DNA of 24,000 bases from Acidimicrobiales bacterium (GCA_052143315.1 JBKQTE010000092.1:47159-71158); one strand, 5' to 3'; positions 5,180 through 24,000 are shown, counted from the first letter of the stretch. Program-made: numbers and translations. Notes: generated by a model from the sequence alone, not told the origin.

Positions 5180-6804
5180 TCGAGCGCCCGTTCGCCATCA
5201 CCCTCGACGTCGGGTCGAGCCATGCCAACCACACCGGCTCGTGGCGCGTGGAGCGACCCGTGTACGTCGACCGCCTGCCGCCGTGCAGCAACGCCTGCCC
5301 GGCGGGCGAGAGCGTCCAGCAGTGGCTGTACCAGGCCGAGCCCGGCGACTACCAGGCGGCATGGCGGGCGCTGGTCGAGGACAACCCGTTCCCCGCGGTG
5401 ATGGGTCGAATCTGCTACCACCCGTGCGAGACGGCCTGCAACCGCGCCCAACTCGACGATGCCGTCGGGATCAACGCCGTCGAGCGGTTCCTGGGCGACC
5501 TGGCCATCCAGCGTGGCTGGAAACTGCCCCCCGCCGGTACGGAGACCGGCAGGCGCGTCCTCGTGATCGGTGCCGGACCCGCGGGGCTCAGCTGCGCCTA
5601 CCATCTGCGCCGGCTCGGTCACGGCGTCCGTCTGGTCGACTCGGCGAACGCGCTCGGAGGCATGATGCGCTACGGCATCCCCGCCTACCGGCTCCCCCGG
5701 GCGATCCTCGATGCCGAGATCGACCGGATCGTCGCCCTCGGCGTCGATGTCGGCCTCGGGCACACCGTCGAGGACGTCGAGTCCGAACGGGTAGAAGGCG
5801 GCTTCGATGCCGTCTTCCTGGCAGTGGGAGCGCAGTTGGCACGGCGCGTCGACATCCCCTCGGGCGACTCCACCCAGGTGCTCGACGCCCTGTCGCTGCT
5901 CCGCCAGGTGGCAGACGACGATCCCCCCCTGCTCGGGCGTCGCGTGGCCGTCTACGGCGGCGGTGACACCGCCCTCGACGCCGCCCGCACGGCACGACGG
6001 CTCGGGGCCACCGAGGCCGTCGTCGTCTACCGTCGCAACCGCGAACGCATGCCCGCCCACGGCGACGAGCTGGCGGAGGCCCTCGCCGAAGGGGTCACGG
6101 TTCGTTGGCTCTCCATCGTGAACCGGGTCGACCAGGGTCACCTGGTCCTCGAGAAGGTGCGGCTCGACGACGACGGGTTTCCCGTGCCCACCGGCGAGCT
6201 CGAGGAGCTCGATGCCGACTCGCTGGTGCTGGCGTTGGGCCAGGACACCGATCTGTCGCTCCTCGATCGGGCCGGGGACGTAACCGTCGAGGACGGCGTC
6301 GTCCAGGTCCACCCGACGATGATGACCGACGAGGATGGCGTCTTCGCCGGAGGCGATTCGGTCCCGTCGCCGCGCACGGCCACCGTGGCCATCGGCCACG
6401 GGAGGCGGGCGGCGGGCGGCATCGACGCCTTCCTGTCCGGCCGGCCGGACGTCGATTCCCCGCCCTCCGAGCTCGCCACCTTCGAACGCCTCAACACCTG
6501 GTACTTCGCCGATGCACCACCCACCCGGCGCCCGGAGCTGGAGCAGGCGCGGCGGGTGAGCACCTTCGACGAGGTCGTCGGCGGTCTCACCGAGGAGAAC
6601 GCGCTGTTCGAGGCCCGACGCTGCCTCTCGTGCGGGAACTGCTTCGAGTGTGACAACTGCTTCGGCGTCTGCCCGGACAACGCGGTGATCAAGCTGGGAC
6701 CGGGACAGCGCTACCGGTTCGACCTCGACTTCTGCAAAGGGTGCGGCATCTGCGCCCAGGAGTGCCCGTGCGGTGCCATCGACATGGTCCCCGAGGACAC
6801 CTGA
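5176..6804 (+). CDS. GltD-like (glutamate synthase small-subunit family) NAD(P)H-dependent flavin oxidoreductase fused to a C-terminal 2x[4Fe-4S] ferredoxin domain; probable electron-transfer partner of the POR
   Basis: N-terminal HTGSWRVERPVYVD resembles the TGxWRxxRP leader of POR delta subunits. This is followed by the GltD-type PPCSNACPAGE...NPFPAVMGRICYHPCETACNR. Dinucleotide folds VLVIGAGPAGLSCAYHL and VAVYGGGDTALDAARTA are present. The C-terminus has CFECDNCFGVCP and CKGCGICAQECP (two CxxCxxCxxxCP motifs). GTG 5176 overlaps the porB TGA (GTGA), with GGAGG at 5161-5165. Confidence 0.8.
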   Translation: MIERPFAITLDVGSSHANHTGSWRVERPVYVDRLPPCSNACPAGESVQQWLYQAEPGDYQAAWRALVEDNPFPAVMGRICYHPCETACNRAQLDDAVGINAVERFLGDLAIQRGWKLPPAGTETGRRVLVIGAGPAGLSCAYHLRRLGHGVRLVDSANALGGMMRYGIPAYRLPRAILDAEIDRIVALGVDVGLGHTVEDVESERVEGGFDAVFLAVGAQLARRVDIPSGDSTQVLDALSLLRQVADDDPPLLGRRVAVYGGGDTALDAARTARRLGATEAVVVYRRNRERMPAHGDELAEALAEGVTVRWLSIVNRVDQGHLVLEKVRLDDDGFPVPTGELEELDADSLVLALGQDTDLSLLDRAGDVTVEDGVVQVHPTMMTDEDGVFAGGDSVPSPRTATVAIGHGRRAAGGIDAFLSGRPDVDSPPSELATFERLNTWYFADAPPTRRPELEQARRVSTFDEVVGGLTEENALFEARRCLSCGNCFECDNCFGVCPDNAVIKLGPGQRYRFDLDFCKGCGICAQECPCGAIDMVPEDT

Positions 6805-8852: not shown

Positions 8853-9011
8853 CTACCCCTCGGTGAGCTCCTTCACCTCGCTCAACCGATGCTCGAGGCT
8901 GGAGAGCTCCAGGTCGAGCGCCTCCCGGGTGACGGCTGCGTGCTCGAGCTCCTCCAGGCGTCGTTCCAGCTCGTCGATCCGGCTGGACAGCGCCTCGATG
9001 TCGGTGGTCAT
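8853..9011 (-). CDS. 52-aa predicted coiled-coil micro-protein (below the 60-aa cut-off of the ORF track)
   Basis: My translation of the minus strand gives MTTDIEALSSRIDELERRLEELEHAAVTREALDLELSSLEHRLSEVKELTEG, ending in TAG (8853-8855). The ATG (9011-9009) overlaps the upstream gene's TGA as ATGA. GAGGAGGA lies 6-7 nt upstream. Third codon positions are almost all G/C, as in neighbouring genes. Confidence 0.5.
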   Translation of the reverse strand: MTTDIEALSSRIDELERRLEELEHAAVTREALDLELSSLEHRLSEVKELTEG

Positions 9012-10645
9012 CCGCTTCCTCCTCTGTTCGTCGGATGGTGGAGCTGCGCCCCGGTGTCGCCGGGATCCACCAGCTCGTGCCTCCGACCGTAGGGCGGGTC
9101 GGGGTCGGCGAAAAGGGCCGAAGGTCCCGATCGGGCCGGAAGGGCGTCGACGGCCAGGCCCACGGCCTCGGCCGGCGCCGTCCCGGAGGTGTCGATGACG
9201 GCGCTAGGCGTCCACGGGTCCATCGATCGCTGCATCGCCGCTCTCACCTCCGGGGTCGCCTCGGAGCTGTCGGCGCGTTCCGACAGGCGTCGCCGGATCC
9301 GTTGATCCGCCACCTCGGCGGCCGCGTCACACCTCAGCTCGACGAGATCGGCGGCGGCGCCATCGGCCACCGAACGCACCTCGGCCCGCCGAGCGGCACT
9401 GGTCCACGACGCGTCGAGGACGACGGACTCACCGAGTCCGAGCAGTCGCTCGGCTGTCTGCATCAGTTCGGCGTACACAGACTCGGTGGCGGCAGGGACG
9501 TACCGGCCGGAGAGGTACCCGGGCACCTCGGGACCGCCCGGGGCGGCCAGGCTCCTCCGCACCTCATCGGAGCGGAGCACGGTCCATCCCCGGGCTGCGC
9601 CGAGGCCGGCGGCGACGGTGGACTTCCCCGTGCCCGGTAGCCCTCCCACCAGCACGAGCGTGACGGCCGCCCGTCGGAGGTGGGTCAGGGCCAGCTGGTG
9701 GAAGGTTCCGGCCTCGATCCGGGCCGCATCGGCTCCCTGGGCAGCCCGGAGACAGCAGACCTTGGCCCGGACATAGGCCCGGGAGGCGCAGTAGTAGTGG
9801 ACCAGACCGTCGGGCACGGGATCGGCCGCCAGCTCCCGGTAGCGAGCAAGGAGGTGCTCGGCGGCGTCGCCCCGGCCCAGATGCTCGAGGTCCATGGCCA
9901 GGAAGGCCACGTCGGCAGCCACGTCGGCGAAGCGCAGCCGGTCGGAGAATTCGAGGCAGTCGAGGATCCGAACACCGTCGTCGAGGCAGAAGATGTCCTC
10001 GGCCTGGAGATCCCCATGGCCGTCGCACACCCGCCCCGCACGGATCCGGGTCTCGAACAGCGGCTCCCGGCCCCTGGTCCAGCGGTCGGCCAGCCACCGG
10101 ATCTCCAGATCGACCGTCTCGTCCAGGACGGTCCCCAGGTAGGGGCGGGTCTCCACGAAGTTGTCGGACCAGGCCGCCCACAGCGACGCACCGGTCGCCG
10201 CCTCGGCGATGGCGGGCGAACGCGCCGCCCGGGCGTGGAACGCCACCAGGGTCTGGGCCACCGGCTCGAGCCACCTGTCGAGATCCGGTCCCCGGCGGGC
10301 CAGCTCCGCCAGCCGGCGTTCCTCGGGCATACGTCTCATGACCACCACGGAGTCGACGGTCCGACCTTCGAACCGGATGTCGGCCACACCCAGATAGACG
10401 TCCGGGGCCAGACGCCGATTGAGCTCGACCTCGCGTTCGCAGTCGATCCGTCGGGCTTCGGGCTGCGTGAAGTCGACGAACTCGAAGCGAACCGGCTTCC
10501 GCACCTTGTAGACCCGGTCACCGACGAAGAACAGCCTCGAGACATGGGTCTCCACGATGCGGTCCGGCTGCTCTTCGCCTGCCGAGTCGCATCCCACCTC
10601 CGGCCTCCTCCATGCGCCAGGCCCCGCCCGGCCGGGCATGACCAC
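9008..10645 (-). CDS. Fusion of an aminoglycoside-phosphotransferase-like (protein-kinase-fold) domain and a C-terminal P-loop kinase/ATPase domain
   Basis: N-terminal half: ETHVSRLFFVGDRVYKVRKP, catalytic-loop-like CDGHGDLQAEDIF, and ILDCLEF. C-terminal half: Walker A LVGGLPGTGKST. The start is uncertain: ATG at 10645, or GTG at 10597 preceded by GGAGGAGG. The last ~40 residues are low-complexity. Confidence 0.75.
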   Translation of the reverse strand: MVMPGRAGPGAWRRPEVGCDSAGEEQPDRIVETHVSRLFFVGDRVYKVRKPVRFEFVDFTQPEARRIDCEREVELNRRLAPDVYLGVADIRFEGRTVDSVVVMRRMPEERRLAELARRGPDLDRWLEPVAQTLVAFHARAARSPAIAEAATGASLWAAWSDNFVETRPYLGTVLDETVDLEIRWLADRWTRGREPLFETRIRAGRVCDGHGDLQAEDIFCLDDGVRILDCLEFSDRLRFADVAADVAFLAMDLEHLGRGDAAEHLLARYRELAADPVPDGLVHYYCASRAYVRAKVCCLRAAQGADAARIEAGTFHQLALTHLRRAAVTLVLVGGLPGTGKSTVAAGLGAARGWTVLRSDEVRRSLAAPGGPEVPGYLSGRYVPAATESVYAELMQTAERLLGLGESVVLDASWTSAARRAEVRSVADGAAADLVELRCDAAAEVADQRIRRRLSERADSSEATPEVRAAMQRSMDPWTPSAVIDTSGTAPAEAVGLAVDALPARSGPSALFADPDPPYGRRHELVDPGDTGAQLHHPTNRGGSG

Positions 10646-10815
10646 CCGTGCGACCCTGCTCTCCAGAGTGGTCCGAACCGGGGCGCCGGCACAGAGCCGA
10701 AGGTCACAAGGTGGACCGGCGACGACCGGCCGGGACGGGGACCTTTGGCCCTTGCGGGAACCGGCCCGTCCGCCCGATCATGGAGGTGACCAGGCATCCT
10801 TCGAAGGGGACGACC

Positions 10816-13179
10816 ATGCAAGCACGGACGGCGACTCTCCCCGGGGAGGCCGGAGCGGCCCCCCTCGCCGCTCGCGTCCGCTGCCGCTACCGGGTCGGTG
10901 GCGTCGTCCAGGGAGTCGGCTTCCGACCCTTCGTGTACGTCACCGCCACCGGGCTCTCGCTCACCGGGTGGGTGCGGAACGGCTCCTCGGGCGTCACCGT
11001 CGAGGTCGAGGGCCAACCGCACCAGGTGGCGGCGTTCGAGCGACGGCTGCACGACCAGCCTCCCCGATCGGCCATCGTCGAGAGCATCGTCAAAGAGGAG
11101 CTGGCGCCCCGCGGAGGCACCGGCTTCGTCATCGAGGGCTCCGGTGCCGCTGGGGACGTCCGGACGCTGGCCTCCCCCGACATCGCCACCTGCGAGGCCT
11201 GCTTGGAGGAGATGGCCGATCCCACCGACCGTCGATACCGGCACCCGTTCATCACCTGCACCGACTGCGGGCCCCGCTTCACCATCATCACCCGCCTGCC
11301 CTACGACCGACCGGCCACCACCATGGCCGACTTTCCCCTGTGCGCCGAGTGCGCCACCGAGTACGCCGATCCTGGCGACCGTCGGTTCCATGCCCAGCCC
11401 ATCGCCTGTCCCGACTGCGGTCCGGAGCTCGAGCTGGTGGTGCCCGGCCAGCCGGTGCCGGTCGGGGAGGCGGCCCTCGTCCGGGCCCGCTCGCTCCTCG
11501 CCGGCGGCGCCATCCTGGCGGTGAAGGGACTCGGCGGCTACCACCTGGTCTGCGACGCCACCGACCAGGCAGCCGTCGCCGAGCTGCGCCGGCGCAAGCG
11601 GCGCGGGGACAAGCCCCTCGCCGTGATGGTGGCCGATCTCGGAGCGGCCCGAGTCCTAGCCGAGATCGGCCAGGCCGAGGCGGACCTGCTCACCTCCCCC
11701 CGGCGCCCGATCGTCCTCCTGGCCCGCCAGGCGGGCCCGGAACGGGTCGCTCCGGCGGTGGCGCCCGGCAGTCCCGACCTCGGGCTGATGCTGGCCTACA
11801 CCCCCCTGCACCGGCTGCTGTTCGGGCTGCCCGGCGATGCGGCCGGTACCCGGGCCCTGGTCATGACGTCGGGGAACCTGGGCGGCGAGCCGATCGTCTA
11901 CCGGGACCATGAGGCGATGACCCGGCTGGCGCCACTGGTCGACGGCTGGCTGCGCCACGACCGCCCGATCGCCGTCCCGTGCGACGACTCGGTGTCCCGT
12001 GTGGTCGACGGCGAGGAGCTGCCCATCCGCCGGTCCCGCGGCTACGCCCCGCTGCCGGTGACGCTTCCTTTCGAGGTGCCGGCCATCCTGGCCGTGGGGG
12101 GGGACGTGAAGAACGCCTTCTGCGTGGCCGAGGGCCACCACGCCTGGATGAGCCAGCACATCGGCGACATGGACGACCTGGCCACCCTGGACGCCCTCGG
12201 TGCCACCGAGCAGAGGCTGGAATGCCTCACCGGCGTGGTGCCCGAGCTGGTGGTCGCCGACCGCCACCCCGCCTACCGCTCCGGCGGATGGGCGTTCCGC
12301 CATGCCGCCGGGCGCCCTCACGTCAGGGTCCAGCACCACCACGCCCATATCGCCTCGGTGATGGGCGAGCACGGACTCGACGGCCGGGAGCGGGTCATCG
12401 GTGTCGCCTTCGACGGCACCGGCTACGGGTCGGACGGGGCGGTGTGGGGCGGCGAGGTCCTCGTTGCCGACTACGAGGGATTCGAGCGGTTCGCCCATCT
12501 GGCCTACGTCCCCCTGCCGGGCGGCGACGCCAGCGTGGAGCGCCCCTACCGCATGGCACTGGCCCACCTGGCCGCCGCCGGCGTGGACTGGGATCCCGAC
12601 CTCCCGCCGGTGGCCGGCTGCCCGGGTGCGGAACGTGCGGTGCTGGCCCACCAGCTGGCCACCGGGTTCAACTGTGTCCCGACCTCCAGCATGGGCCGAC
12701 TGTTCGACGCGGTGGCCTCCCTGGCCGGCGTCCGGCAGATCGCCGACTTCGAGGCCCAGGCGGCCATCGAGCTCGAGGGGGTCTCCCGTGATGTCCCCCC
12801 CGACGAGGGCTACGGGTTCGCCCTCGACCCGGCGGGCGGCGCCGGCCAGCCACTGGTGGCCGACGCCACACCGGTGATCGCCGCCGTGGTCGCCGACCGG
12901 CGTGGCGGTGTCCCGACCGCCCTGATCGGTGCCCGCTTCCACGCCGCAGTGGCCGACCTGGTGGTGGCGGTGGCCGGGTCGGCCCGCCGGCGGAGCGGCC
13001 TTGGCACGGTGGTGCTGTCGGGTGGCGTCTTCCAGAACGCTCTGCTGCTCGGGGCGGTGCGGACCCGGTTGCGGGCCGGCGGGTTCATCGTGCTCTGTCC
13101 GCGCCTCCTTCCCCCGAACGACGGGGGCCTCGCCCTCGGCCAGGTGCTGGTGGGCGCGCGAGCCAGAAGGGTCGGCTGA
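10816..13179 (+). CDS. hypF: [NiFe]-hydrogenase maturation carbamoyltransferase HypF
   Basis: Acylphosphatase motif VQGVGFRPFVY. Two zinc-finger pairs: CEAC-x18-CTDC (from nt 11191) and CAEC-x18-CPDC. YrdC-like KGLGGYHLVCDA and a Kae1-like C-terminal half are present. I prefer ATG 10816 (GAAGGGGA 6 nt upstream) over the track start at 10648. Confidence 0.93.
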   Translation: MQARTATLPGEAGAAPLAARVRCRYRVGGVVQGVGFRPFVYVTATGLSLTGWVRNGSSGVTVEVEGQPHQVAAFERRLHDQPPRSAIVESIVKEELAPRGGTGFVIEGSGAAGDVRTLASPDIATCEACLEEMADPTDRRYRHPFITCTDCGPRFTIITRLPYDRPATTMADFPLCAECATEYADPGDRRFHAQPIACPDCGPELELVVPGQPVPVGEAALVRARSLLAGGAILAVKGLGGYHLVCDATDQAAVAELRRRKRRGDKPLAVMVADLGAARVLAEIGQAEADLLTSPRRPIVLLARQAGPERVAPAVAPGSPDLGLMLAYTPLHRLLFGLPGDAAGTRALVMTSGNLGGEPIVYRDHEAMTRLAPLVDGWLRHDRPIAVPCDDSVSRVVDGEELPIRRSRGYAPLPVTLPFEVPAILAVGGDVKNAFCVAEGHHAWMSQHIGDMDDLATLDALGATEQRLECLTGVVPELVVADRHPAYRSGGWAFRHAAGRPHVRVQHHHAHIASVMGEHGLDGRERVIGVAFDGTGYGSDGAVWGGEVLVADYEGFERFAHLAYVPLPGGDASVERPYRMALAHLAAAGVDWDPDLPPVAGCPGAERAVLAHQLATGFNCVPTSSMGRLFDAVASLAGVRQIADFEAQAAIELEGVSRDVPPDEGYGFALDPAGGAGQPLVADATPVIAAVVADRRGGVPTALIGARFHAAVADLVVAVAGSARRRSGLGTVVLSGGVFQNALLLGAVRTRLRAGGFIVLCPRLLPPNDGGLALGQVLVGARARRVG

Positions 13180-13439
13180 TGTGCCTGGCCGTTCCCGGAC
13201 GGGTGGTCCGGACGTGGTCGATCGACGGCACCCTCATGGCCCAGGTGGACTTCGGTGGCGTGCGCAAGGATGTCTGCCTGCAGTACCTGCCTGAGGCGGT
13301 GATCGACGACTACGTGATCGTCCATGTCGGCTTCGCCATCCAGCAGCTCGACGAGCGTTCCGCCCTCGAGACGTTGGAGGCCTTCGAGCGGATGGGCGTC
13401 CTGGCCGAGGAGCTCGGCGACGGGGGAACCCGGGGATGA
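13179..13439 (+). CDS. hypC: Hydrogenase maturation chaperone HypC/HupF family
   Basis: The N-terminal [10 protein letters not shown] carries the essential Cys2, and [12 protein letters not shown] is present. 86 aa. The ATG shares one nt with the hypF TGA (TGATG). Confidence 0.9.
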
Positions 13440-14548
13440 AGTACCTCGACGAGTTCGCCGACCCGGACCTGGCCCGTCACCTGCTCGACCGGATCCGAGC
13501 CATCACCACCCGCCGGTGGGCGATCATGGAGGTGTGCGGGGGCCAGACCCACTCGATCATCCGCCACGGCATCGACCAGCTGTTGCCCGGGGAGATCGAG
13601 CTGATCCACGGTCCCGGGTGCCCGGTCTGCGTCACCCCGGTGGAGATCGTCGACAGGGCCCTGGCCATCGCCGCCCGGCCCGACGTCATCTTCTGCTCGT
13701 TCGGGGACATGCTGCGGGTGCCGGGAAGCCGCGGGGACCTCTTCGGGGTGAAGAGCGCCGGCGCTGACGTGCGGGTGGTCTACTCGCCCCTCGACGCCCT
13801 CGAGGTGGCCCGGGCCAATCCCGAGCGGGAGGTGGTCTTCTTCGGCATCGGCTTCGAGACCACGGCGCCGGCCAACGCCATGACCGTCCACCAGGCGGAG
13901 CGGCTGGGTATCGCCAACTTCTCGCTGCTGGTCTCCCACGTGCTGGTGCCGCCGGCCATCGCCGCCATCATGGAGTCGCCCAACTGCAGGGTGCAGGGGT
14001 TCCTGGCCGCCGGGCACGTGTGCAGCGTCATGGGCACCCACCAGTACCCCGAGCTGGCCGCCACCTACCGGGTCCCCATCGTGGTCACCGGGTTCGAGCC
14101 ACTGGACATCCTCGAGGGTATCCGACGGACCGTCGCCCAGCTCGAGTCGGGTCGGTACCAGGTGGAGAATGCCTACCGGCGGGCGGTGACCGATGAGGGC
14201 AACGTGGCCGCCCAGCAGATGTTGGAGGAGGTCTTCGAGGTCACCGACCGCTCCTGGCGGGGCATCGGGACGATCCCGCAGAGCGGCTGGAGGCTGTCCG
14301 ACCGCTACCGTGCCTACGACGCCGAGGACCGCTTCGGCATCGGCTCGGTCCGCACCGACGAGTCGGCGGCGTGCCGGGCCGGTGAGGTGCTCCAGGGCCT
14401 GATCAAGCCCAACGAGTGCGAGGCGTTCGGTCGGGAGTGCACGCCACGCAGCCCGCTCGGCGCCACCATGGTGTCCTCGGAAGGGGCCTGTGCCGCCTAC
14501 TACCTCTACCGCCGGCTCGAGCTGACCGTGGCGGGCCCCAATGGTTGA
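13436..14548 (+). CDS. hypD: Hydrogenase maturation protein HypD
   Basis: MKYLDEF N-terminus, with motifs [21 protein letters not shown] and [12 protein letters not shown] overlap with the hypC stop. Confidence 0.93.
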
Positions 14549-15623
14549 CCGGGGGCGGGCGGAGCGGCCCCTCCCCGACTTCGAGGGCTGGACGTGCCCG
14601 GTGCCGCTGCGAGACTCGCCGGTCATCGTGATGGGCCACGGGGGGGGCGGCGCCATGTCGGCCGAGCTCGTCGAGCACCTGTTCCTCCCCGCCTACGGTG
14701 AGGCCGCCTCCGCCGAGCTCGGCGACGCCGCCGTCCTGTCCCTGGGTGGCGGCCACCGGCTGGCCTTCTCCACCGACTCGTTCGTCGTCAAGCCGGTGTT
14801 CTTCCCCGGTGGCTCCATCGGCGACCTCGCCGTCAATGGGACGGTCAACGACCTGGCCATGTCCGGGGCCCGTCCGATGGTGCTGTCGACCGCCTTCATC
14901 CTCGAGGAGGGGACGACCCTCTCCGACCTCGGCCGTATCGCCATGTCGCTGGGGTCGGCGGCCCTGGCCGCCGGGGTCCGGCTGGTCACCGGCGATACCA
15001 AGGTGGTCGACCGCGGGTCGGGGGACGGCGTCTACATCAACACGGCGGGCATCGGGGTGCTCGATGACGGCGTCGACATCCGTCCCGAGCGGGCCCGGGC
15101 CGGTGACGTGGTCATCGTCAGCGGCGACATCGGCGTGCACGGCGTGGCCGTGATGAGCTGCCGGGAGGGAGTCGGCTTCACCACCGACCTGGAGAGCGAC
15201 ACGGCACCGCTGCACGGGCTGGTGGCCGCCATGCTGGGCACCGGAGCCGACGTCCACGCGCTGCGGGACCCGACCCGCGGCGGCGTGGCCGCCTCGCTCA
15301 ACGAGATCGGCCGGGCCGCCAAGGTCGGGATCGCACTGGTCGAGCGTGACCTTCCCGTCCCCGATGGGGTCAGGGACGCCTGCGGCCTGCTGGGGCTCGA
15401 CCCCTTGCACGTGGCCAACGAGGGGAAGCTGCTGGCCTTCGTGCCGCCGGACGACGCAGACCGGGTGCTCGAGGCCATGCACCGGCACCCCCTGGGTGGC
15501 GACGCCCGGGCGGTCGGGGTCTGCGTCGAGGACCATCCCGGGATGGTGGTGGCCCGCACGGCTCTCGGCGGTACCCGCGTCGTCGACCTGCCGGTGGGCG
15601 AGCAGCTGCCGCGGATCTGTTGA
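14541..15623 (+). CDS. hypE: Hydrogenase maturation protein HypE (carbamoyl dehydratase)
   Basis: WTCPVPL...[14 protein letters not shown]-terminus, a PurM/AIR-synthase-like body, and a C-terminal PRIC motif ending on the essential Cys. 8-nt overlap with hypD. Confidence 0.93.
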
Positions 15624-16378
15624 GGATGACGGCCTCGGAACCGGGTCAGGCGCTCTTCGCCCGCTACGCCTACCCCCCCAACGAGCTCGGCTACTGCGGC
15701 CCGACGGACGGGTCGCCCCTCCTCCAGCGGGCGTCGGGTGATCAGGCCATGGACATCGCCGCCCATGCCCGTCAGTTCGAGGGGGCGTGGACCTATCTGG
15801 AGCTCATCGCTTCGGCCGTCGGGATCGACGACCCCCTCGACCGCCGGGTGGTCCAGGCCTACTGGGTGGGCAACGACCTGCTCGACCGGGTCGCCCCGTC
15901 CGTCCTGGTGGCCAGGCTGGGCCAGGAGCTCGAGGGACAGGTCGGCGGGTTCTGGAGCCGCATGGGCCCGGCGGCCGAGGAGCTGGCGCTCCCCCACCAC
16001 AGCTTCCACGTGTTCGCCGTCTACCCCTGGGTCGGCCTCCTCGGCTCTGCCGGCGACGTCCCCCTGTCGGTGCTGGACCGGTGCCGGATACGGTGGGGCG
16101 AGGTGGTGGGCATCGACGGGGAGCGGGCCACCGTCCGGTCCCGGCCGCTCCGGTGGGACGGCGACGAGCTGTCGTTGGGGCCCGAGCGGGAGGAGGCGGT
16201 GCGCTGGTCCTCGTCCGGTCGGTCGCTGGTCGGGGGCATCGTCCCCGGCGACCATGTGTCGCTCCACTGGGACTGGGTCTGCGACCGTCTGGGTGCGGCC
16301 GAGCTGGGGGCGCTGGAGCTCACCAGCGCCCGTCAGCTCGAACTGACCAACACCCAGCTTCGGGAAGGAGCCCGCTGA
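15620..16378 (+). CDS. Conserved hypothetical protein coupled to hypE; the C-terminal half resembles a HypC-like OB-fold
   Basis: Begins at TTG 15620 (overlapping the hypE TGA) or at ATG 15626. The N-terminal motif is YAYPPNELGYCGP. G/C third positions match the hyp genes. I recall this type of protein being annotated as a DUF family next to hypE in actinobacteria, but cannot verify that here. Confidence 0.65.
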   Translation: MRMTASEPGQALFARYAYPPNELGYCGPTDGSPLLQRASGDQAMDIAAHARQFEGAWTYLELIASAVGIDDPLDRRVVQAYWVGNDLLDRVAPSVLVARLGQELEGQVGGFWSRMGPAAEELALPHHSFHVFAVYPWVGLLGSAGDVPLSVLDRCRIRWGEVVGIDGERATVRSRPLRWDGDELSLGPEREEAVRWSSSGRSLVGGIVPGDHVSLHWDWVCDRLGAAELGALELTSARQLELTNTQLREGAR

Positions 16379-16475
16379 CGAGCTCCTTCCACGGCGGATG
16401 CCCTTCTCAGCTGCGGGTGACGGGCACCTTGGTCGACGCGTCGAGTGGGACCCACCCCTGGAGGATCACCGGTCG

Positions 16476-18098
16476 TCAGTCGCTCGAGGACTGCCTCCAG
16501 TCCTCCACTCGCCGGATCAGGTCGTCAGGACGTTCGAGACGCATGGCCGGCTCTCCCCGGTAGACCAGGCCGGTCCCGCCGTCGACGGTGACCAGGTCAC
16601 CCTCGCGGAGCTCCGCGTCGCCCATCCGGAGCCTCCCATGATCAGCATCGACCTCCAGGCCGGCACATCCGACCACGCAGGCCAGACCCAGCTGACGGGC
16701 GACCACTGCGGCGTGGGACGTTCGGGCACCGGTCGCCGTCACCAGACCCCGGCAGACGGCAAGGCCCGGGATGTCCTCGGTCGAGGCCTCGTGGCGTACG
16801 AGGACCACCGGATCGCCGTCCAGACAGAACTGCTGGGCAGCGTCGGTGGTCAGCGCCATCCGCCCACTGCCGACCCCATCGCTGGCAGGAGTGCCCCGCC
16901 CGAGGACCTCGACATCGTCCTCGTCCGCCACGCGGAGGCGTGAGATGGTGTCGAGCGCATACGGCTCCAGTCGATCGAGCGCCGTGGCGACATCGACCAG
17001 CCCCTCGTCGACCAGGTCGCAGGCGATCCGGAGGGCCGCCCAGGGCGTGCGCTTGGCCGTACGGGTCTGCAGCATCCACAGTGTCCCCTCTTGTACGGTG
17101 AACTCGAAATCCTGGACGTCGCGAAAGAGGACCTCGAGCGTCCGACGGACGTTCTGCAGTTGGTGCGCCAGACCCGGCACGGCGGCGATGGACCGATCAG
17201 AGTCGCCCACCGTGTGGCGACCCGCCACCACGTCCTCCCCCTGGGCATTGAGGATGAAGTCGATGTACGGGCGGTTCTCCCCCGTCGCCGGGTCGCGGGT
17301 GAAGCCCACCCCCGACCCCGATGCCGCTCCCATGTTGCCGAAGACCATGGCCTGCACGGTCACCGCCGTCCCGATCAGATCGGTCAAGCCCTGTATCGCT
17401 CGATAGGTGACGGCCTTCGGACTGTTCCACGAGCGGAACACCGCGGCGACCGCCCCGAGGAGCTGCTCCTCCGGGTCTTGGGGAAACGCTCGGCCGACGA
17501 TCGACCTGAACACGTCCTGCTGTCGCCGGACCACTGCCCGCAGGGCGGCAACATCGAGCTCGTCGGCGGTCGGCGCCCCGAACTGGACCATCACCTCGGT
17601 CAGCACTCTGGCGAACGGTGCCGCCGGGCACCCCTCGACCACCTCGGCGTAGGCCTGGATCAGGCGGCGGTAGGAGTCCCAGACGAACACCGGGTCACCG
17701 GTGGCGCGAAGCAGTCCGGGCAGCGTCGCATCGGAGAGGCCGACGTTCAGGATCGTCTCGAGCATGCCGGGCATGGAGACGGCCGCTCCCGAGCGAACCG
17801 ACACCAGAAGCGGACGGCGACCTGCGGCGAACCGCTGGCCGGTCAGGCGCTCGAGCGTTCCGATCCCGTTGAGCACGTCGTCGACGACCTCGTCATCGAG
17901 CGTCCCACCTGCTTCGACGAACCTCTGGCACGACTGTGTGCCGAGGACGAAGGCCGGTGGAGTCGGCAGGCCGGCCTCGCTCATCATCATGAGGTTGAAG
18001 GCCTTCCTGCCCACCTCCCGGGGCGTCACCTCACGGGCGCTGGCCGCGCCGATCGTCCAGACCGGCCTCGCTCCCCCTGGGGAGACGGGACTGCTCAC
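16476..18098 (-). CDS. PPDK-like protein with only the nucleotide-binding (ATP-grasp) and phospho-His swivel domains; no PEP/pyruvate-binding TIM barrel
   Basis: PPDK N-terminal motifs RRPLLVSVRSGAAVSMPGMLETILNVGLSD and GFTRDPATGENRPYIDFILNAQGEDVVAGRHT. Swivel domain VVLVRHEASTEDIPG...TGARTSHAAVVARQLGLACVVG (His codon at 16713-16715). The protein ends 78 aa after the His. Preferred start is GTG 18098-18096, which overlaps the upstream gene's TGA (GTGA). The track start at 18182 would overlap the upstream gene by 88 nt. Confidence 0.8.
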   Translation of the reverse strand: MSSPVSPGGARPVWTIGAASAREVTPREVGRKAFNLMMMSEAGLPTPPAFVLGTQSCQRFVEAGGTLDDEVVDDVLNGIGTLERLTGQRFAAGRRPLLVSVRSGAAVSMPGMLETILNVGLSDATLPGLLRATGDPVFVWDSYRRLIQAYAEVVEGCPAAPFARVLTEVMVQFGAPTADELDVAALRAVVRRQQDVFRSIVGRAFPQDPEEQLLGAVAAVFRSWNSPKAVTYRAIQGLTDLIGTAVTVQAMVFGNMGAASGSGVGFTRDPATGENRPYIDFILNAQGEDVVAGRHTVGDSDRSIAAVPGLAHQLQNVRRTLEVLFRDVQDFEFTVQEGTLWMLQTRTAKRTPWAALRIACDLVDEGLVDVATALDRLEPYALDTISRLRVADEDDVEVLGRGTPASDGVGSGRMALTTDAAQQFCLDGDPVVLVRHEASTEDIPGLAVCRGLVTATGARTSHAAVVARQLGLACVVGCAGLEVDADHGRLRMGDAELREGDLVTVDGGTGLVYRGEPAMRLERPDDLIRRVEDWRQSSSD

Positions 18099-20068
18099 CG
18101 CGCCGCCATCTGGGCGAGCATGTGATCGCGCAAGAGGTGGGCGGAGTGCGAGAGCGCGTCGGTGGCGTCCTCCATGGCACACGAGATCAGATCGGCGACG
18201 TGGAGGCTCCGGAATTCAGGGGCCTTCTCGACGAGACCGGATCGGGCCGAGCGGTCCGCGCCATCGGCCTCGTGCTCGAAGGTGACCACCTTGTCGACGG
18301 CAACGAGGAAGTCGTCGAGCTCGTCGTCGCCCCCACCCCCGACCAGCTCGCGGGCGATCTCGAGTGCCTTCAGGTGCTCCCGGGCGGCGAAGACGGTGAT
18401 TCCGGCCAATGGCTCGAGGATCGGGCACACCACCGCGATGGCCCCGGCCGGGAGCAGGGTGAGCAAGAAGAGTGCCTCTTCGAGATCGTCGATAGCGTCG
18501 TCCAGACGGGAGACGGTCGACGCGATGGCACCGGCGCCGTCGACCCGTTCAGCCGCCAGTCGCACGGCGCCGAGTATCTCGTCGGCCCGATGCTCCCATG
18601 TCGCCGCCCGTGCCGAGGCCCGGTTCAGATGGGCGTTGCCGCCGGGCATCCCGAGACGGATGAGGGCAGCACGCAGCGACTGCGCGGTCTCCACCACCAG
18701 GCTCCCGTGCTCGGCGACCAGATCGAACAGCTGCTGATGAGCGGCTTGCACGTGCTTCAGCACTTCGATTCGCACTTCGTCGCGGACCAGCGCGGCGGAC
18801 TTGCCCTCCAGCATCCCCTCGGAAGAGGTGCGGATGGCGAACCGCAGGACAGCCAGGGTGGCGTCGATCCCCAGGACGTCGCCCAGTGGTTCCCCGTATC
18901 GGAGCGGGACCCTGTTCGACAGCTCGATGGCCTCGAAGATGAGGCGTTCGCCGCCCATCTGCAGGAATGCCAGGTGGCCGAGGTCCTCGTCGGCCGCCCA
19001 GCGGAGCAACTCGATCGCCTGCCTCTTCTTCACGATCAATCCGAGCCGCTTGCGGGCACGATTCCAATCGATGAGGAAGACCAACCGCGACCCCAGGTAG
19101 CGAAGGTAGGACTCGAGGGACTCCCGGTCGGGGGCGTCGAAGCGTCCGCTGACCACATGGTGCTCGCCCAGCGCTCCCCGGTCGTGCTGGTGGTAGGTGT
19201 CGGACCACCGGACGGAGAACCGGCCGAGCATCGACTCGAAGAAGTTCAGCCGTTCGAGATGGACGTCGCTATAGGTCACCGTGACAGCGAGGCCCTCGAC
19301 CGCGACGACGATGACGTGGGCGTTGGTCATGCCGATGTCGTTCTCGATCAGTACCTTCGGCCCCGAACGTGTCGCCGTCGTGCCCAGGCCGGGGTGGTCG
19401 AACTTCAGCGGTTCGGTGGCGTGAAGACCGGCCATGAAGGACGAGACCAACGAGCGATCGCCGACGTCGAGCCCGTACACGAAGGCGCCGTCGAGGATCT
19501 CCGTCGCCACCTCGATCTGCAGCTGGTTCAGGGCGCGGTGGGCATCCATGATCAGCAGGTGGAGGGAGTCGCCCGAGCGTCGGTCAGCCGATGCCATGCG
19601 TTCCACATAGGCCCCGGGGATGCAGCCGGCGTTCAGGTCCGGCGCATCGGCGAGCAGCGCCTGCAGGCGGTGGACGTACCCGTCGGGGCCCACGCCAGCA
19701 ACTTCGAGGGGGGCGATCATGTCGGAGATGGCCTCAGCCAAGCCGGCATGGACGGTTCCGATCCCCGGGACCAGATAGCGGTCTTCCCCGGAGAGCCGTG
19801 CCTGCTCGACGAGGCCGTCGAGCCGCTCATTGGCGACACCCGCAGCCAGCCGATCCTCGCGGAGTGACGAGAAGGGCCGGTCCGGCTGATCGGCATGGGC
19901 ACGAGCGGCCTGGATGAGAGCCAGGAGGTACTTGGCGCGATCGTTGGCCTCGAGCCCGCGATTGATCAACAACGGCAGGACCAGGGACGATTCGCCCAGA
20001 TTCTGCACGATCTCCGGCTTGGACAGGTGGGGCTCGTGCCCTCCGACGGTCGGCGGGATCTCTGCCAT
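18095..20068 (-). CDS. 657-aa hypothetical protein; N-terminal ~430 aa unrecognised, C-terminal ~225 aa PhoU_div/DUF47-like helical domain
   Basis: ATG at 20068 is preceded by GGGGAGTAGGA. Amino-acid composition is normal and third positions are mostly G/C, whereas the 581-aa antisense ORF is G/R/D/E/P-rich. The C-terminus has a duplicated pattern: WEHRADEILGAVR...LDDAIDDLEEALF and FEHEADGADRSARS...MEDATDALSHSAHLL. No P-loop or TM segment seen. Confidence 0.7.
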   Translation of the reverse strand: MAEIPPTVGGHEPHLSKPEIVQNLGESSLVLPLLINRGLEANDRAKYLLALIQAARAHADQPDRPFSSLREDRLAAGVANERLDGLVEQARLSGEDRYLVPGIGTVHAGLAEAISDMIAPLEVAGVGPDGYVHRLQALLADAPDLNAGCIPGAYVERMASADRRSGDSLHLLIMDAHRALNQLQIEVATEILDGAFVYGLDVGDRSLVSSFMAGLHATEPLKFDHPGLGTTATRSGPKVLIENDIGMTNAHVIVVAVEGLAVTVTYSDVHLERLNFFESMLGRFSVRWSDTYHQHDRGALGEHHVVSGRFDAPDRESLESYLRYLGSRLVFLIDWNRARKRLGLIVKKRQAIELLRWAADEDLGHLAFLQMGGERLIFEAIELSNRVPLRYGEPLGDVLGIDATLAVLRFAIRTSSEGMLEGKSAALVRDEVRIEVLKHVQAAHQQLFDLVAEHGSLVVETAQSLRAALIRLGMPGGNAHLNRASARAATWEHRADEILGAVRLAAERVDGAGAIASTVSRLDDAIDDLEEALFLLTLLPAGAIAVVCPILEPLAGITVFAAREHLKALEIARELVGGGGDDELDDFLVAVDKVVTFEHEADGADRSARSGLVEKAPEFRSLHVADLISCAMEDATDALSHSAHLLRDHMLAQMAAR

Positions 20069-20200
20069 GGGTAGTTCCTACTCCCCGGCCGTCATCTGAC
20101 GACAGAGGCGAACGTCCCAATGGCATCCGCAGGTCCATGACCAGGACAGCTCCGGCCCGACATGCCGGGTGCGAACCGCTGAGCCTGGCGGCATCTCTGT

Positions 20201-21778
20201 TCAGTCGATGCCGACCACCCGGTTCCGACCGGCGGACTTGGCTTTGTAGAGGTTGGCGTCGGCTCGCAGCAGCACCGAGTCGATCGACTCGGTGCCGTCC
20301 CAGGCGGCGACCCCGCCCGAGAAGGTCACCGTGGTGGCTGTATCTTCGGAGACCGTCTGCTGGCGTATGGCTTCCACCAGCTGGGTCGCCCCTCTACCAT
20401 CAGTCTCGGGAAGCACGAGGCAGAACTCCTCGCCGCCGTACCGGGCCAGGATGTCCTGTGAGCGGATACGTCCGCTGATGCCATCGGAGAACCGGCGCAA
20501 CATCCTGTCGCCGGCAATGTGGCCATTGCGGTCGTTGAAGCTCTTGAAGTCGTCGAGGTCGAGAATGGCGACCGAGAAGGTCTTGTTGTTCTTGCGGCCC
20601 CGGCTGAGCTCGTTGTCGAGCGCGTGAAAGAGGCGCCGGCGATTGGCGATACCGGTCAACTCGTCGATGCTGGCCAGCTCCACCAGCCAGGAGATGAGCC
20701 GGGCCCGGTCGCACATGGCAGCCAGCAAGGCGACGCCTGCGGCGAGAAGGGTGTGATCCACCGGGACATGCAGCACCGACATCGCCGGCACGACGAGCAC
20801 CACATCGACACCGCCGGCAGACGATGGTGTGGCCACGAACGTGCCGGTGGAGGTCCAATGGTTGGAGTCGGCGGCGCGCGCCGGAAGGTCACCGAGCTGA
20901 TCGGGGTCGGGCCAATCGGGATCGGGCCACGAGAGGACCGGCTGGAGCAACCCAGCCTGGCGGGTGAAGATGGCGTAGTGGTCGACGTCGAGCGCCTCGG
21001 CCAAGCGGCTAGCAATGGGGTCGAGATCCTCGGGCCAGGCGCGCAGCGTTCCCGCATAGGAGGCGAGCACCGCCAACGACTGGTTCCTGTGGACCCCGTA
21101 GAGCGACCCTTTGAGGGCCCTGTCCATGGCCAGGGCCACGATTGCCGCCGTACCGGAGAACAGGACGGTGAGCCAGACGGCTTCGACAGCTGGGACCTGC
21201 ACACCCGATTCCACCCCGAGCGTGACGACGAGGACGATCCATGCCGTTGCGATCATCCCGATGTTGCCCAGTAGGACTGCGACGAGGAAGATGGTGCACG
21301 GCATGAGCAGGAGTACGCCGCCACGGATCCCGAATGCCACGCCGAACAGTCCGAACTCGACGATGGTGGCCCATGTCGCCACGATGCTGCGCTTCGGTTG
21401 GAACCACTCGAAACGTCCCTCGTTCTGCGCTTTCAGCTCACAGATGTTCCACACCGTCACGCCGGCAAACAACACGAGGCACGCAACCAGCGCGCCGACG
21501 GACCGAAGGTGCGGCCGGTCGAAGAGCGCGGCCAGCGCGAACAGCGGGATGACGAGACCCAGGATCAGTATCGACTGGGTTGCCCGCTTGAGCGCCAAGC
21601 CCGTAGGCTCATAGCGGAATTGGATCCAACCGCGTCTCCAGAGCGGGACTTCACCGTCCGGCTCTGACCCCGGAGCCGACCCCGGCAGATGTGCCGGGTC
21701 TTCGGGCGCGCTCCAAGGATTATCCACGCTCAATTTGTCGGCTCCCTCGACCCATACCTTGAGACGGTCGGGAGCCAT
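20201..21778 (-). CDS. Membrane-anchored diguanylate cyclase (GGDEF domain)
   Basis: C-terminal ELTGIANRRRLF...DLDDFKSFNDRNGHIAGD...RSQDILARYGGEEFCLVL has an intact GGEEF active site, with an RxxD (RSQD) I-site five residues upstream. There are about 5-6 hydrophobic helices between aa 65 and 225, then a ~150-aa linker domain. The start is uncertain: ATG 21778 lacks an obvious SD, while TTG 21733 follows GAGGGAG. Confidence 0.85.
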   Translation of the reverse strand: MAPDRLKVWVEGADKLSVDNPWSAPEDPAHLPGSAPGSEPDGEVPLWRRGWIQFRYEPTGLALKRATQSILILGLVIPLFALAALFDRPHLRSVGALVACLVLFAGVTVWNICELKAQNEGRFEWFQPKRSIVATWATIVEFGLFGVAFGIRGGVLLLMPCTIFLVAVLLGNIGMIATAWIVLVVTLGVESGVQVPAVEAVWLTVLFSGTAAIVALAMDRALKGSLYGVHRNQSLAVLASYAGTLRAWPEDLDPIASRLAEALDVDHYAIFTRQAGLLQPVLSWPDPDWPDPDQLGDLPARAADSNHWTSTGTFVATPSSAGGVDVVLVVPAMSVLHVPVDHTLLAAGVALLAAMCDRARLISWLVELASIDELTGIANRRRLFHALDNELSRGRKNNKTFSVAILDLDDFKSFNDRNGHIAGDRMLRRFSDGISGRIRSQDILARYGGEEFCLVLPETDGRGATQLVEAIRQQTVSEDTATTVTFSGGVAAWDGTESIDSVLLRADANLYKAKSAGRNRVVGID

Positions 21779-22665: not shown

Positions 22666-24000
22666 TCAGCAGATGCCGAAGAACAGGTGCAGCAGGAACA
22701 CCAGCCAGGCCGGGAACCCGGTGCAGATGTTGGGAGCCGACGGCGTGATAGCGGCAGATGCTGCGGAGGCCGCGCCGGTGCCGACTGCGTTGATCGCCGC
22801 CACCGTAAAGGTGTAGGCGGTCCCGTTGGTCAGGCCGGTGATGGTGTCACTGGTCACGTTGCCGACCTTCACCGGGCTCAGCTCCTTGCCGGCGGCATAC
22901 GGCGTGATGACGTAGCCGGTGATGGCGCTTCCACCGTTGGAGGCAGGTGCCTTCCAAGTGACGGTGGCCGAGGCATTGCCGGCCGTGGCCGAGACACCGG
23001 TCGGTGCACCAGGCACCGTGGTGGTCGGGGCGGCCGGAGTTACCGAGTTCGACGCAGCCGAGGCCGCACCGGTGCCGACGGCGTTGATCGCCGCCACCGT
23101 GAAGGTGTAGGCGGTCCCGTTGGTCAGGCCGGTGACGGTGTCACTGGTCACGTTGCCGACGGTGACGGCAGACCCGCTGGACGGCGTGATGACGTAGCCG
23201 GTGATCGGCGAGCCACCCGTGTTGGTCGGAGCCGTCCAGGCGACGGTGGCCGAGGCGTTGCCGGCCGTGGCGGTGCCGATGGTCGGAGCACCGGGAACGG
23301 TTGCGATCGGTTGCGGGGTCACTGAGTTCGACGCCGCCGAGGCCGGACCGGTGCCAACCGCGTTGATCGCCGCCACCGTGAAGGTGTAGGCGGTCCCGTT
23401 GGTCAGGCCGGTGACGGTGTCACTGGTCACGTTGCCGACGGTGACGGCAGAGCCGCTCGACGGCGTGATGACGTAGCCGGTGATCGGCGAGCCACCATTG
23501 GAGGCCGGAGCCGTCCAGGTGACGGTGGCCGAGGCGTTGCCGGCCGTGGCGGTGCCGATGGTCGGAGCGCCAGGGACGGTTGCCGGGGCGGCGGGGGTGA
23601 CCGAGTTGGAGGAAGCCGACTGGGCGCCGGTGCCAACCGCGTTGATCGCCGCCACCGTGAAGGTGTAGGCGGTCCCGTTGGTCAGGCCGGTGACGGTGTC
23701 ACTGGTCACGTTGCCGACGGTTAGGGGAGACCCACTAGACGGCGTGATGACGTAGCCGGTGATTGCCGAGCCACCCGTGTTGGTCGGAGCCGTCCAGGTG
23801 ACGGTGGCCGAGGCATTGCCCGCCGTGGCGGTGCCGATGGTCGGAGCACCCGGGGCTGTGACGGGGGTGACCGAGTTGGACGCTGCGGACTGGGCACCGG
23901 TACCGACCGCGTTGATCGCTGCGACCTTGAAGGTGTAGGCGGTCCCGTTGGTCAGGCCGGTGACGGTGTCACTGGTCACGTTGCCGACGGTGACGGCAGA
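22666..24000 (-). CDS. Fibronectin type III tandem-repeat protein with a C-terminal hydrophobic tail; 5' end lies beyond the window
   Basis: The minus frame is open to nt 24000 (1335 nt, in frame). At least five FN3-like units of the type PGAPTIGTATAGNASATVTWTAP..GGSPITGYVITPSSGS.VTVGNVTSDTVTGLTNGTAYTFTVAAINAVGTG are present. The protein ends ...PSAPNICTGFPAWLVFLLHLFFGIC. Confidence 0.85.
   Translation of the reverse strand, partial: SAVTVGNVTSDTVTGLTNGTAYTFKVAAINAVGTGAQSAASNSVTPVTAPGAPTIGTATAGNASATVTWTAPTNTGGSAITGYVITPSSGSPLTVGNVTSDTVTGLTNGTAYTFTVAAINAVGTGAQSASSNSVTPAAPATVPGAPTIGTATAGNASATVTWTAPASNGGSPITGYVITPSSGSAVTVGNVTSDTVTGLTNGTAYTFTVAAINAVGTGPASAASNSVTPQPIATVPGAPTIGTATAGNASATVAWTAPTNTGGSPITGYVITPSSGSAVTVGNVTSDTVTGLTNGTAYTFTVAAINAVGTGAASAASNSVTPAAPTTTVPGAPTGVSATAGNASATVTWKAPASNGGSAITGYVITPYAAGKELSPVKVGNVTSDTITGLTNGTAYTFTVAAINAVGTGAASAASAAITPSAPNICTGFPAWLVFLLHLFFGIC
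22744..24000. repeat. Tandem in-frame coding repeats of 270-294 bp (FN3 modules) with long identical nucleotide stretches
   Basis: The anchor string GTGTAGGCGGTCCCGTTGGTCAGGCCGGTGA recurs at 22811, 23105, 23384, 23663 and 23933, giving spacings of 294, 279, 279 and 270 nt. One 60-nt block is identical at 23113-23172, 23392-23451 and 23941-24000. Confidence 0.9.

Follow-up and report, generated by a model that had tools for sequence, protein, structure and literature searches.

VadK, the product of Rv1127c in Mycobacterium tuberculosis, is a truncated pyruvate, phosphate dikinase (PPDK) that autophosphorylates on His422 with ATP and Mg, shows interactions with methylcitrate-cycle enzymes and is required for virulence (EMBO Rep 2026; PMC13400623). 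Its solubility required co-expression with the downstream operonic Rv1126c, and 2 M NaCl was needed to part the two proteins (PMC13400623). This dependence suggests that acting with a bound partner is general among truncated PPDKs. We analyzed a stretch of 24,000 nucleotides (nt) from an Acidimicrobiales bacterium (GCA_052143315.1 JBKQTE010000092.1:47159-71158; the whole stretch is hereafter called the window), in which the gene for a short PPDK, here called PPDK-S, directly follows the gene for a protein of 657 amino acids (aa), here called the partner. A sequence-only reading of the window had proposed the two as a candidate split or novel phosphotransfer module, and genome comparison supports a functional pair. 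The same reading had pointed to a short ppdK in M. tuberculosis, correctly, since Rv1127c/VadK is such a gene (PMC13400623).

PPDK-S and VadK (NF004531/PRK05878) are alike in having an ATP-grasp domain and a swivel domain with the catalytic histidine, without the phosphoenolpyruvate (PEP)/pyruvate domain, and both are mis-annotated as PPDK. His462 of PPDK-S is the equivalent of VadK His422, for which autophosphorylation has been demonstrated. The histidine motif differs, being R-T-S-H in PPDK-S, as in canonical PPDK, and G-A-A-S-H in VadK (read from a primer sequence). VadK is encoded beside prpR/prpDC and has the small downstream partner Rv1126c, whereas in the pair described here the partner has 657 aa and is encoded upstream, and methylcitrate-cycle genes are absent; a Pfam survey of the window's main open reading frames (ORFs) gave neither PrpD nor a citrate-synthase family. 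The VadK family was reported from pathogenic mycobacteria, some other actinomycetes and a Burkholderia species (PMC13400623), a far narrower range than that of the PPDK-S proteins encoded together with a partner (the paired clade), which come from many bacterial phyla and two archaeal lineages. The VadK paper does not mention DUF47, PhoU or a partner of 650 aa (PMC13400623).

With NF004531, the model for truncated PPDK/VadK, PPDK-S scored 457.4 bits (cut-off 456) and four other members of the paired clade 404-445 bits, under the cut-off. The N-terminal half of the canonical PPDK model outscored NF004531 for all tested members (493-576 bits). Because of these scores and the R-T-S-H motif, the paired clade would be the sister group of VadK, perhaps its ancestor, but distinct from VadK itself; we regard VadK as the closest described relative of PPDK-S.

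Canonical PPDK (EC 2.7.9.1, TIGR01828) aligns end to end with PPDK-S over the latter's N-terminal 510 residues, with T-S-H kept in both, and differs in having a C-terminal TIM barrel (PF02896). Phenylphosphate synthase of Thauera aromatica is a split, PEP-synthase-like dikinase whose phospho-His serves an acceptor other than pyruvate; its ATP-binding and His parts reside on different subunits, and a third subunit is a small CBS-domain protein. In the pair, by contrast, one polypeptide combines ATP-grasp and His, and the second protein is unrelated. Rifampicin phosphotransferase, PigC/RedH and glucan, water dikinase use the same ATP-grasp and swivel-His logic with a family-specific acceptor domain, which is however part of the same chain and unrelated to the 657-aa partner; NCBIfam matches of PPDK-S to these families were weak (35-64 bits against cut-offs of 999-1350). 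By analogy, these four systems are mechanistic precedents without a shared partner domain. With the Pit-accessory proteins of the DUF47/PhoU_div family (PF01865) and with PhoU, the tail of the partner has a six-helix fold and paired E-x3-D motifs in common. Known DUF47/PhoU_div proteins are, however, stand-alone, about 210 aa long and encoded beside Pit/Pst transporters, whereas the partner has 657 aa, with an extra domain of 424 aa, and is coupled to a kinase. The gene pair was not found described in the literature on PPDK with DUF47, PhoU, polyphosphate or CHAD. The enzyme family is already known; the obligate pairing and the conserved partner appear to be undescribed so far.

A conserved and coupled gene pair

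The pair occupies the following positions, counted from the first nucleotide of the window:

18095..20068, minus strand: partner gene, 657 aa (ORF)
16476..18098, minus strand: PPDK-S (short PPDK) gene, 540 aa, with ATP-grasp domain and swivel phospho-His domain (Pfam, NCBIfam)
18095..18098, minus strand: GTGA stop/start overlap, the PPDK-S start lying on the partner stop (sequence)
16379..16475, no strand: spacer of 97 bp that follows the PPDK-S stop and reaches the end of the convergent DUF6390 gene (sequence)

The longest ORF for PPDK-S (16476-18182, minus strand) has 568 aa counted from the most upstream GTG. The GTG at 18098-18096 is in frame, coincides with the place where homologues begin, and shares GTGA with the partner's TGA at 18097-18095. 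Starting there, the product has 540 aa and equals the NCBI product P0271 (100% identity, 540 aa), labelled 'pyruvate, phosphate dikinase'. The partner, too, has a 100% identical NCBI product, from an Acidimicrobiales metagenome-assembled genome. From the sequence, the overlap implies translational coupling of partner and PPDK-S. Downstream, the PPDK-S stop codon (16476-16478) is followed by the 97-bp spacer and the end of the convergent DUF6390 gene (15620-16378, plus strand), so that there is no space for a TIM-barrel remnant 3' of PPDK-S. All of these features (the two ORFs and their domains, the intact T-S-H, the end of the protein 78 aa after the His, the spacer and GTGA) had been described in the sequence-only reading and were confirmed. 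The GC content of the window is about 70%, and a scan of 16300-20300 for promoters and terminators gave none above shuffled expectation. One terminator-like hairpin was called on the opposite (plus) strand at 20176-20191.

A survey of gene neighbourhoods, named in the sequence-only reading as a check, showed that the pair is conserved in two domains of life. A profile built from 22 homologues of the 657-aa protein was searched against a collection with one genome per species (GTDB). At least 559 loci were confirmed and the best 80 taken for context analysis; downstream sequence is present in 76 of them, while the other four stop at a contig edge. In all 76, the partner gene is immediately followed, on its own strand, by a PPDK-S homologue. 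Bacterial loci come from Acidimicrobiia, other Actinomycetota (including cultured Amycolatopsis), Dormibacterota, Planctomycetota, Gemmatimonadales, Alpha-, Beta- and Gammaproteobacteria (Accumulibacter, Azoarcus) and Desulfobacterota (Geobacteraceae), and archaeal loci from Methanomicrobiales (Methanoregula, Methanolinea, Methanoculleus) and Nitrososphaerales. Under a crude rule that takes the longest ORF, the intergenic distance was between -26 and +27 nt in 59 of the 76 loci, and the identical 4-nt overlap was present in 21. The reverse look-up gave the same picture: three PPDK-S homologues (L082-L084) were chosen on contigs whose lengths differ from all those given for the 120 best homologues of the partner, and each is preceded by a gene for a partner homologue of 655-663 aa, with a 4-nt overlap.

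Partner and PPDK-S were the sole conserved genes when the ORFs of the 80 loci were clustered all against all. There was no conserved third gene (the next cluster was an ABC ATPase, found in 15 loci), and neither a response regulator nor a target gene was conserved with the pair. Sequence divergence is correlated between the two proteins, their pairwise identities giving r = 0.90 (66 sequence pairs, 2145 comparisons), at sequence identities of about 34-78% across domains of life. Both proteins are under purifying selection, the ratio of nonsynonymous to synonymous substitution rates (dN/dS) against the closest relatives being 0.17-0.28 for partner and PPDK-S alike.

PPDK-S homologues were 531-560 aa long in 65 loci from the two domains of life, with a chimaeric ORF as the sole exception. 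This ORF (L070, 4322-7276), in a metagenome-assembled genome (MAG) of Methanoregula, runs into a flavin amine-oxidase-like domain and reaches 984 aa in total; it could be a true fusion, or else have arisen through an assembly or frameshift error. We rejected it as a candidate full-length PPDK because it is a PPDK-S joined to an amine-oxidase-like ORF. Sister loci of L070 have, downstream and on the opposite strand, a gene for a pyridine-nucleotide-disulphide oxidoreductase.

Natural fusions also connect the two proteins. The top 150 matches of the partner's N-terminal domain include three much longer proteins, P0146 (1205 aa), P0159 (1200 aa) and P0177 (987 aa). P0146 and P0159 each run, on a single chain, from the N-domain through PhoU_div, a linker of some 30 aa and PPDK_N to PEP-utilizers (Pfam for the three named families). 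P0177 has PhoU_div, linker and PPDK_N, and its sequence degenerates ahead of the swivel domain, without a match to PF00391. The linker is rich in Pro and Ala, about 30 residues long, and stands at the place of the usual stop/start overlap. As the three proteins belong to separate clusters at 50% identity and have different linkers, a single sequencing error is an unlikely source of the fusions. Their order is that of the gene pair, which is classic evidence for physical cooperation of partner and PPDK-S. Adjacency in 76 of 76 loci and in 3 of 3 reverse look-ups, the fusions and the correlated divergence together support, as far as sequence analysis goes, the proposal of a functional, probably stoichiometric pair acting as a split or novel phosphotransfer module.

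Domains and invariant residues of the two proteins

The domains and the predicted phosphorylation site were placed as follows:

16815..18014, minus strand: ATP-grasp domain (PPDK_N), PPDK-S residues ~29-428 (Pfam, TIGR01828, alignment)
16569..16814, minus strand: swivel (PEP-utilizers mobile) domain, PPDK-S residues 429-510 (Pfam PF00391)
16713..16715, minus strand: CAC codon of the catalytic His462, the predicted phospho-histidine (sequence, alignment)
18797..20068, minus strand: partner N-terminal domain, residues 1-424, alpha/beta, no recognised family (Pfam, PDB, Foldseek, AlphaFold2)
18098..18796, minus strand: partner C-terminal DUF47/PhoU-like six-helix domain, residues 425-657 (Pfam, Foldseek)

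In PPDK-S, Pfam identified PPDK_N (PF01326) at 3e-38 and PEP-utilizers (PF00391) at 1.4e-20, with no match to PEP-utilizers_C (PF02896), the PEP/pyruvate TIM barrel. With TIGR01828, the canonical PPDK model, PPDK-S covers positions 18-514 of 865 and scores 535 bits (cut-off 843). Since the TIM barrel is absent, PPDK-S alone should be unable to make or use PEP. G-A-R-T-S-H is intact, with the His at residue 462 of 540 and 78 aa remaining after it. In an alignment of 66 sequences, the swivel motif G457-x-R459-T460-S-H462 was invariant, as were K32, R94, R102-S103-G104, M109-P110-G111, E322, Q329 and E332 in the ATP-grasp region, which was delimited by homology. Altogether 78 positions of PPDK-S are at least 97% conserved, including G457, R459, T460, H462 and residues of the ATP-grasp region.

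The C-terminal tail of the partner had been likened to PhoU_div/DUF47 in the sequence-only reading, and this likeness held at the level of fold. PhoU_div (PF01865) was the sole Pfam match of the 657-aa protein, and a weak one (residues 445-614, E 3.9e-5; its 23.6 bits fall just short of the gathering score, 24.4). A precomputed match to PF01865 is present in many partner homologues; P0160 (34.7 bits) and, among the fusions, P0177 (27.0) and P0146 (26.4) score above gathering and P0159 (22.0) below. The AlphaFold2 model of the whole partner has a mean pLDDT (predicted local distance difference test) of 85.7, and its tail consists of helices 425-471, 477-506, 513-536, 541-576, 581-615 and 619-656, in agreement with the two three-helix bundles of the DUF47 fold. 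When this model was compared with the PDB by Foldseek, only the tail gave matches, with target-normalised TM (template modelling) scores of 0.75-0.76 to 2olt/2iiu and 0.69 to 3l39; PhoU proteins were also among them. As judged from the model, the C-terminal ~230 aa clearly share the DUF47/PhoU fold. A phmmer search of the PDB with the C-terminal domain alone gave nothing meaningful, and the link to DUF47 is therefore a structural one together with the weak Pfam match. Acidic motifs of the tail are W-E492-H-R-A-D496, E598-H-E-A-D602-x3-R606 and D523/D527/E530, so that E-H-x-A-D occurs twice (E492/D496; E598/D602-R606). Such acidic pairs serve metal binding in PhoU-fold proteins.

The N-terminal domain of the partner gave no match in Pfam even at E <= 5, none in a PDB sequence search, and none in Foldseek against the PDB (best probability 0.30, TM about 0.2); its separate AlphaFold2 model (residues 1-424) has a pLDDT of 81. 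The kinase-PPPase domain (PF03618) of the PPDK regulatory protein (PDRP, DUF299) was likewise not matched by the partner in Pfam. Invariant residues in the 66-sequence alignment include six His of the N-domain (H170, H177, H225, H251, H270 and H365) and, further, D167, D244, D268, D334, R73, R134, R273, R328, R339 and K340. Among the corresponding motifs are D-S-x-H-L-L-x-M-D-x-H, F-D-H-P-G-L-G-T, N-D-I-G-x-T-x-A-H, D-x-H-x-x-R and D-W-N-R-A-R-K, and 72 positions of the partner are at least 97% conserved. This composition suggests a metal-binding or phosphate-handling site. Homologues of the partner number 3408 at E <= 1e-3. A profile of the N-domain, searched against 1.84 billion cluster representatives (clusters at 50% identity), matched 1279 proteins at E <= 1e-3, of which 402 reach E <= 1e-30; most have 640-660 aa. 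The N-domain thus represents an unclassified family of about 1279 clusters at 50% identity that appears undescribed.

A candidate two-part phosphotransfer enzyme and its alternatives

With moderate confidence, we interpret the pair as an obligate two-part phosphotransfer enzyme of the PEP-utilising, dikinase type, present as one fused chain in some lineages. By analogy to PPDK, the ATP-grasp domain of PPDK-S would load His462 with the beta-phosphate of ATP, the gamma-phosphate would pass to inorganic phosphate (Pi) to give pyrophosphate (PPi), and AMP would be released. Pi is a likely co-substrate and PPi a likely co-product because the ATP-grasp half is nearer to true PPDK than to PEP synthase. 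The phospho-His domain would then swing to a second site on the partner, which would replace the C-terminal TIM barrel of PPDK. There the N-domain, with its six invariant His and its Asp, Arg and Lys residues, is the likely acceptor or catalytic site, and the DUF47/PhoU-like tail with its paired E-x3-D motifs a likely binding site for a metal-phosphate species. We infer a role as phospho-acceptor module for the partner, in preference to a regulatory one. As a matter of speculation, the phosphate could end up on Pi, PPi, polyphosphate, one of the partner's His or another acceptor.

Gene content around the pair differs greatly between loci. The hyp, DUF6390 and GGDEF genes next to it in the window are not conserved beside it elsewhere in the 80 loci, and we rejected them as functional context for this reason. 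No transporter family was among the recurrent neighbours. At least one polyphosphate-related gene was found within 6 kb of the pair in 12 of 81 loci, with CHAD in ten (including one CYTH-CHAD and one CHAD-metallophosphoesterase), Ppx/GppA in six and PPK2 in two. These loci come from Amycolatopsis, Microthrixaceae, Dongiaceae (Alphaproteobacteria), Geobacteraceae, a beta-proteobacterial MAG, Methanoregulaceae, Methanoculleus, one deltaproteobacterial MAG and one unclassified metagenome contig. The PPK2 genes lie a few kb from the pair, at 5754-6704 in L081, the locus with the fused 1205-aa P0146, and at 3297-4094 in L080. Such polyphosphate genes make up, by our own rough estimate, about one per thousand genes in a genome, so their recurrence in unrelated lineages is unlikely to be chance and gives a hint of a link between the pair and polyphosphate.

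Taking only the DUF47 tail and the CHAD, Ppx/GppA and PPK2 neighbours as a guide, the chemistry might act on inorganic phosphate species, converting Pi to PPi or extending or using polyphosphate. In a more specific and rather unlikely version, the pair would be an inorganic-phosphate dikinase that passes the phosphate of His462 via the partner to Pi, PPi or polyphosphate, or works in reverse and makes ATP from AMP, PPi and polyphosphate. If this were true, the pair would constitute a third route between ATP and polyphosphate or PPi, independent of PPK1 and PPK2 and common to soil Actinomycetota, Accumulibacter, Geobacteraceae, methanogens and Nitrososphaerales, and mycobacterial VadK would be a derived, partner-less offshoot.

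Several points weigh against a two-part enzyme. The N-domain matches nothing known, and its acceptor or catalytic role is assumed from sequence conservation alone. PhoU and DUF47 proteins are usually regulators or accessory proteins and seldom catalysts. Polyphosphate neighbours occur at only ~15% of loci, some of which are closely related. VadK, the sole characterised truncated PPDK, has been described as a regulatory kinase acting on or with other enzymes and not as half of an enzyme (PMC13400623).

The main rival of the bipartite enzyme is accordingly a regulatory one, less probable in our view though a serious possibility: in the manner of PhoU, the partner would sense the state of phosphate or energy and gate the autophosphorylation or stability of PPDK-S, and PPDK-S would be a non-canonical histidine kinase acting on other proteins, as proposed for VadK and the enzymes of the methylcitrate cycle. 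VadK autophosphorylates, co-precipitates with metabolic enzymes, is described as regulatory and binds the small operonic Rv1126c so tightly that 2 M NaCl is needed for separation (PMC13400623). The tail of the partner has the fold of DUF47/PhoU, families known mainly as regulators and accessory proteins, and Foldseek detects a weak likeness (probability <= 0.1) of the N-domain to histidine-kinase DHp/CA proteins and to ChpT. The 80 loci, however, have no conserved third gene, target or response regulator. In the 424-aa N-domain some 60 residues are invariant, a good number being His, Asp, Arg or Lys, and the domain resembles an active site more than a sensor; the order of domains in the fusions is as in multidomain dikinases and fits an enzyme at least equally well; and the paired clade is nearer to canonical PPDK than to VadK.

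A phosphorelay between the two proteins seems improbable to us. Here the phosphate of His462 would be passed to one of the partner's invariant His (such as the helix residues H170 and H177, or H225 within F-D-H-P-G), altering the partner's activity or its binding to a phosphate-related target. His-to-His transfer has a precedent in the related Enzyme I/HPr system of the phosphotransferase system (PTS), and the six invariant His of the N-domain and its weak structural matches to histidine kinases and ChpT would fit. Those Foldseek matches are nevertheless far under significance, no homology of the N-domain to HPr, Hpt or DHp was detectable by Foldseek, PDB sequence search or Pfam, and no downstream effector is conserved.

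It is still far less probable that the pair is a mobile cassette for anti-phage defence or stress, a reading that would account for the patchy distribution and variable neighbourhood of a two-gene unit apparently transferred between bacteria and archaea. PADLOC-DB 2.0 gave no match for partner or PPDK-S, the neighbours are metabolic or phosphate-related, with no defence or mobile-element family among the 25 most frequent on either side, and identities of ~34-78% across domains of life are unlike those of fast-evolving defence genes. Finally, decay of a full-length ppdK into a remnant lying by accident beside the 657-aa gene, a reading to which the plain annotation of PPDK-S as pyruvate, phosphate dikinase and the ppsA gene elsewhere in the window might lend colour, is excluded by co-variation, by dN/dS values of 0.17-0.28 and by invariant catalytic residues, besides the constant length of 531-560 aa in 65 loci of two domains of life (with no full-length orthologue at the same locus, the one longer ORF being chimaeric), adjacency in all 76 loci, the natural fusions and the lack of downstream room for a remnant.

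The conserved pairing bears on annotation. Thousands of public genes labelled pyruvate, phosphate dikinase are predicted to encode proteins that cannot bind pyruvate or PEP, and such labels mislead metabolic reconstruction, for instance where gluconeogenesis or PPi-dependent glycolysis is traced in uncultured Actinomycetota, in methanogens or in ammonia-oxidising archaea. Within these mislabelled genes, one large clade is tied to a specific partner of 650 aa, at times by fusion, and so forms a defined two-protein system, which gives the partner's new domain family (~1279 clusters at 50% identity) a context linked to function. The virulence kinase VadK of M. tuberculosis may be seen anew as belonging to a much wider and older family of truncated dikinases, in which it forms one branch. 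Should the link to phosphate or polyphosphate prove true, the pair would also bear on the interconversion of ATP, PPi and polyphosphate in cells.

Other genes in the window

The left edge of the window is occupied by the C-terminal part of ppsA (1-1176, plus strand), which extends past the edge. The sequence-only reading had called this gene full-length; the window holds only positions 418-796 of the 798-position PEP synthase model. At another locus of the pair (L083), a full-length PEP-utilising enzyme of 824 aa is encoded two genes upstream of the pair. In the window, ppsA is followed on the plus strand by genes for glyceraldehyde-3-phosphate dehydrogenase (1231-2292), the mutually overlapping alpha (2895-4154) and beta (4151-5179) subunits of a 2-oxoacid:ferredoxin oxidoreductase and, after these, a GltD-like FAD/NAD(P) oxidoreductase with Fe-S domains (5176-6804).

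Two long ORFs overlap on opposite strands, one at 9008-10645 (minus strand) with AAA_33 (P-loop kinase-like) in its C-terminal part and one at 9680-10789 (plus strand) with no Pfam match. A hydrogenase-maturation cluster extends from 10648 to 16378 on the plus strand and consists of hypF (10648-13179), hypD (13436-14548), hypE (14541-15623) and then the DUF6390 gene (15620-16378). The start of the latter overlaps the hypE stop, and the DUF6390 gene may be part of the hyp operon.

On the other side of the pair, 132 bp upstream of the partner gene and on the same strand, a multi-pass membrane protein with a C-terminal GGDEF diguanylate cyclase domain is encoded at 20201-21778 (minus strand). An ORF at 22666-23979 (minus strand), which probably extends past the right edge of the window, contains fibronectin type III repeats, at least five in number and nearly identical, in which TGLTNGTAYTF(T/K)VAAINAVGTG recurs, and the GC skew climbs sharply at this ORF, to 0.18 in 23001-24000.

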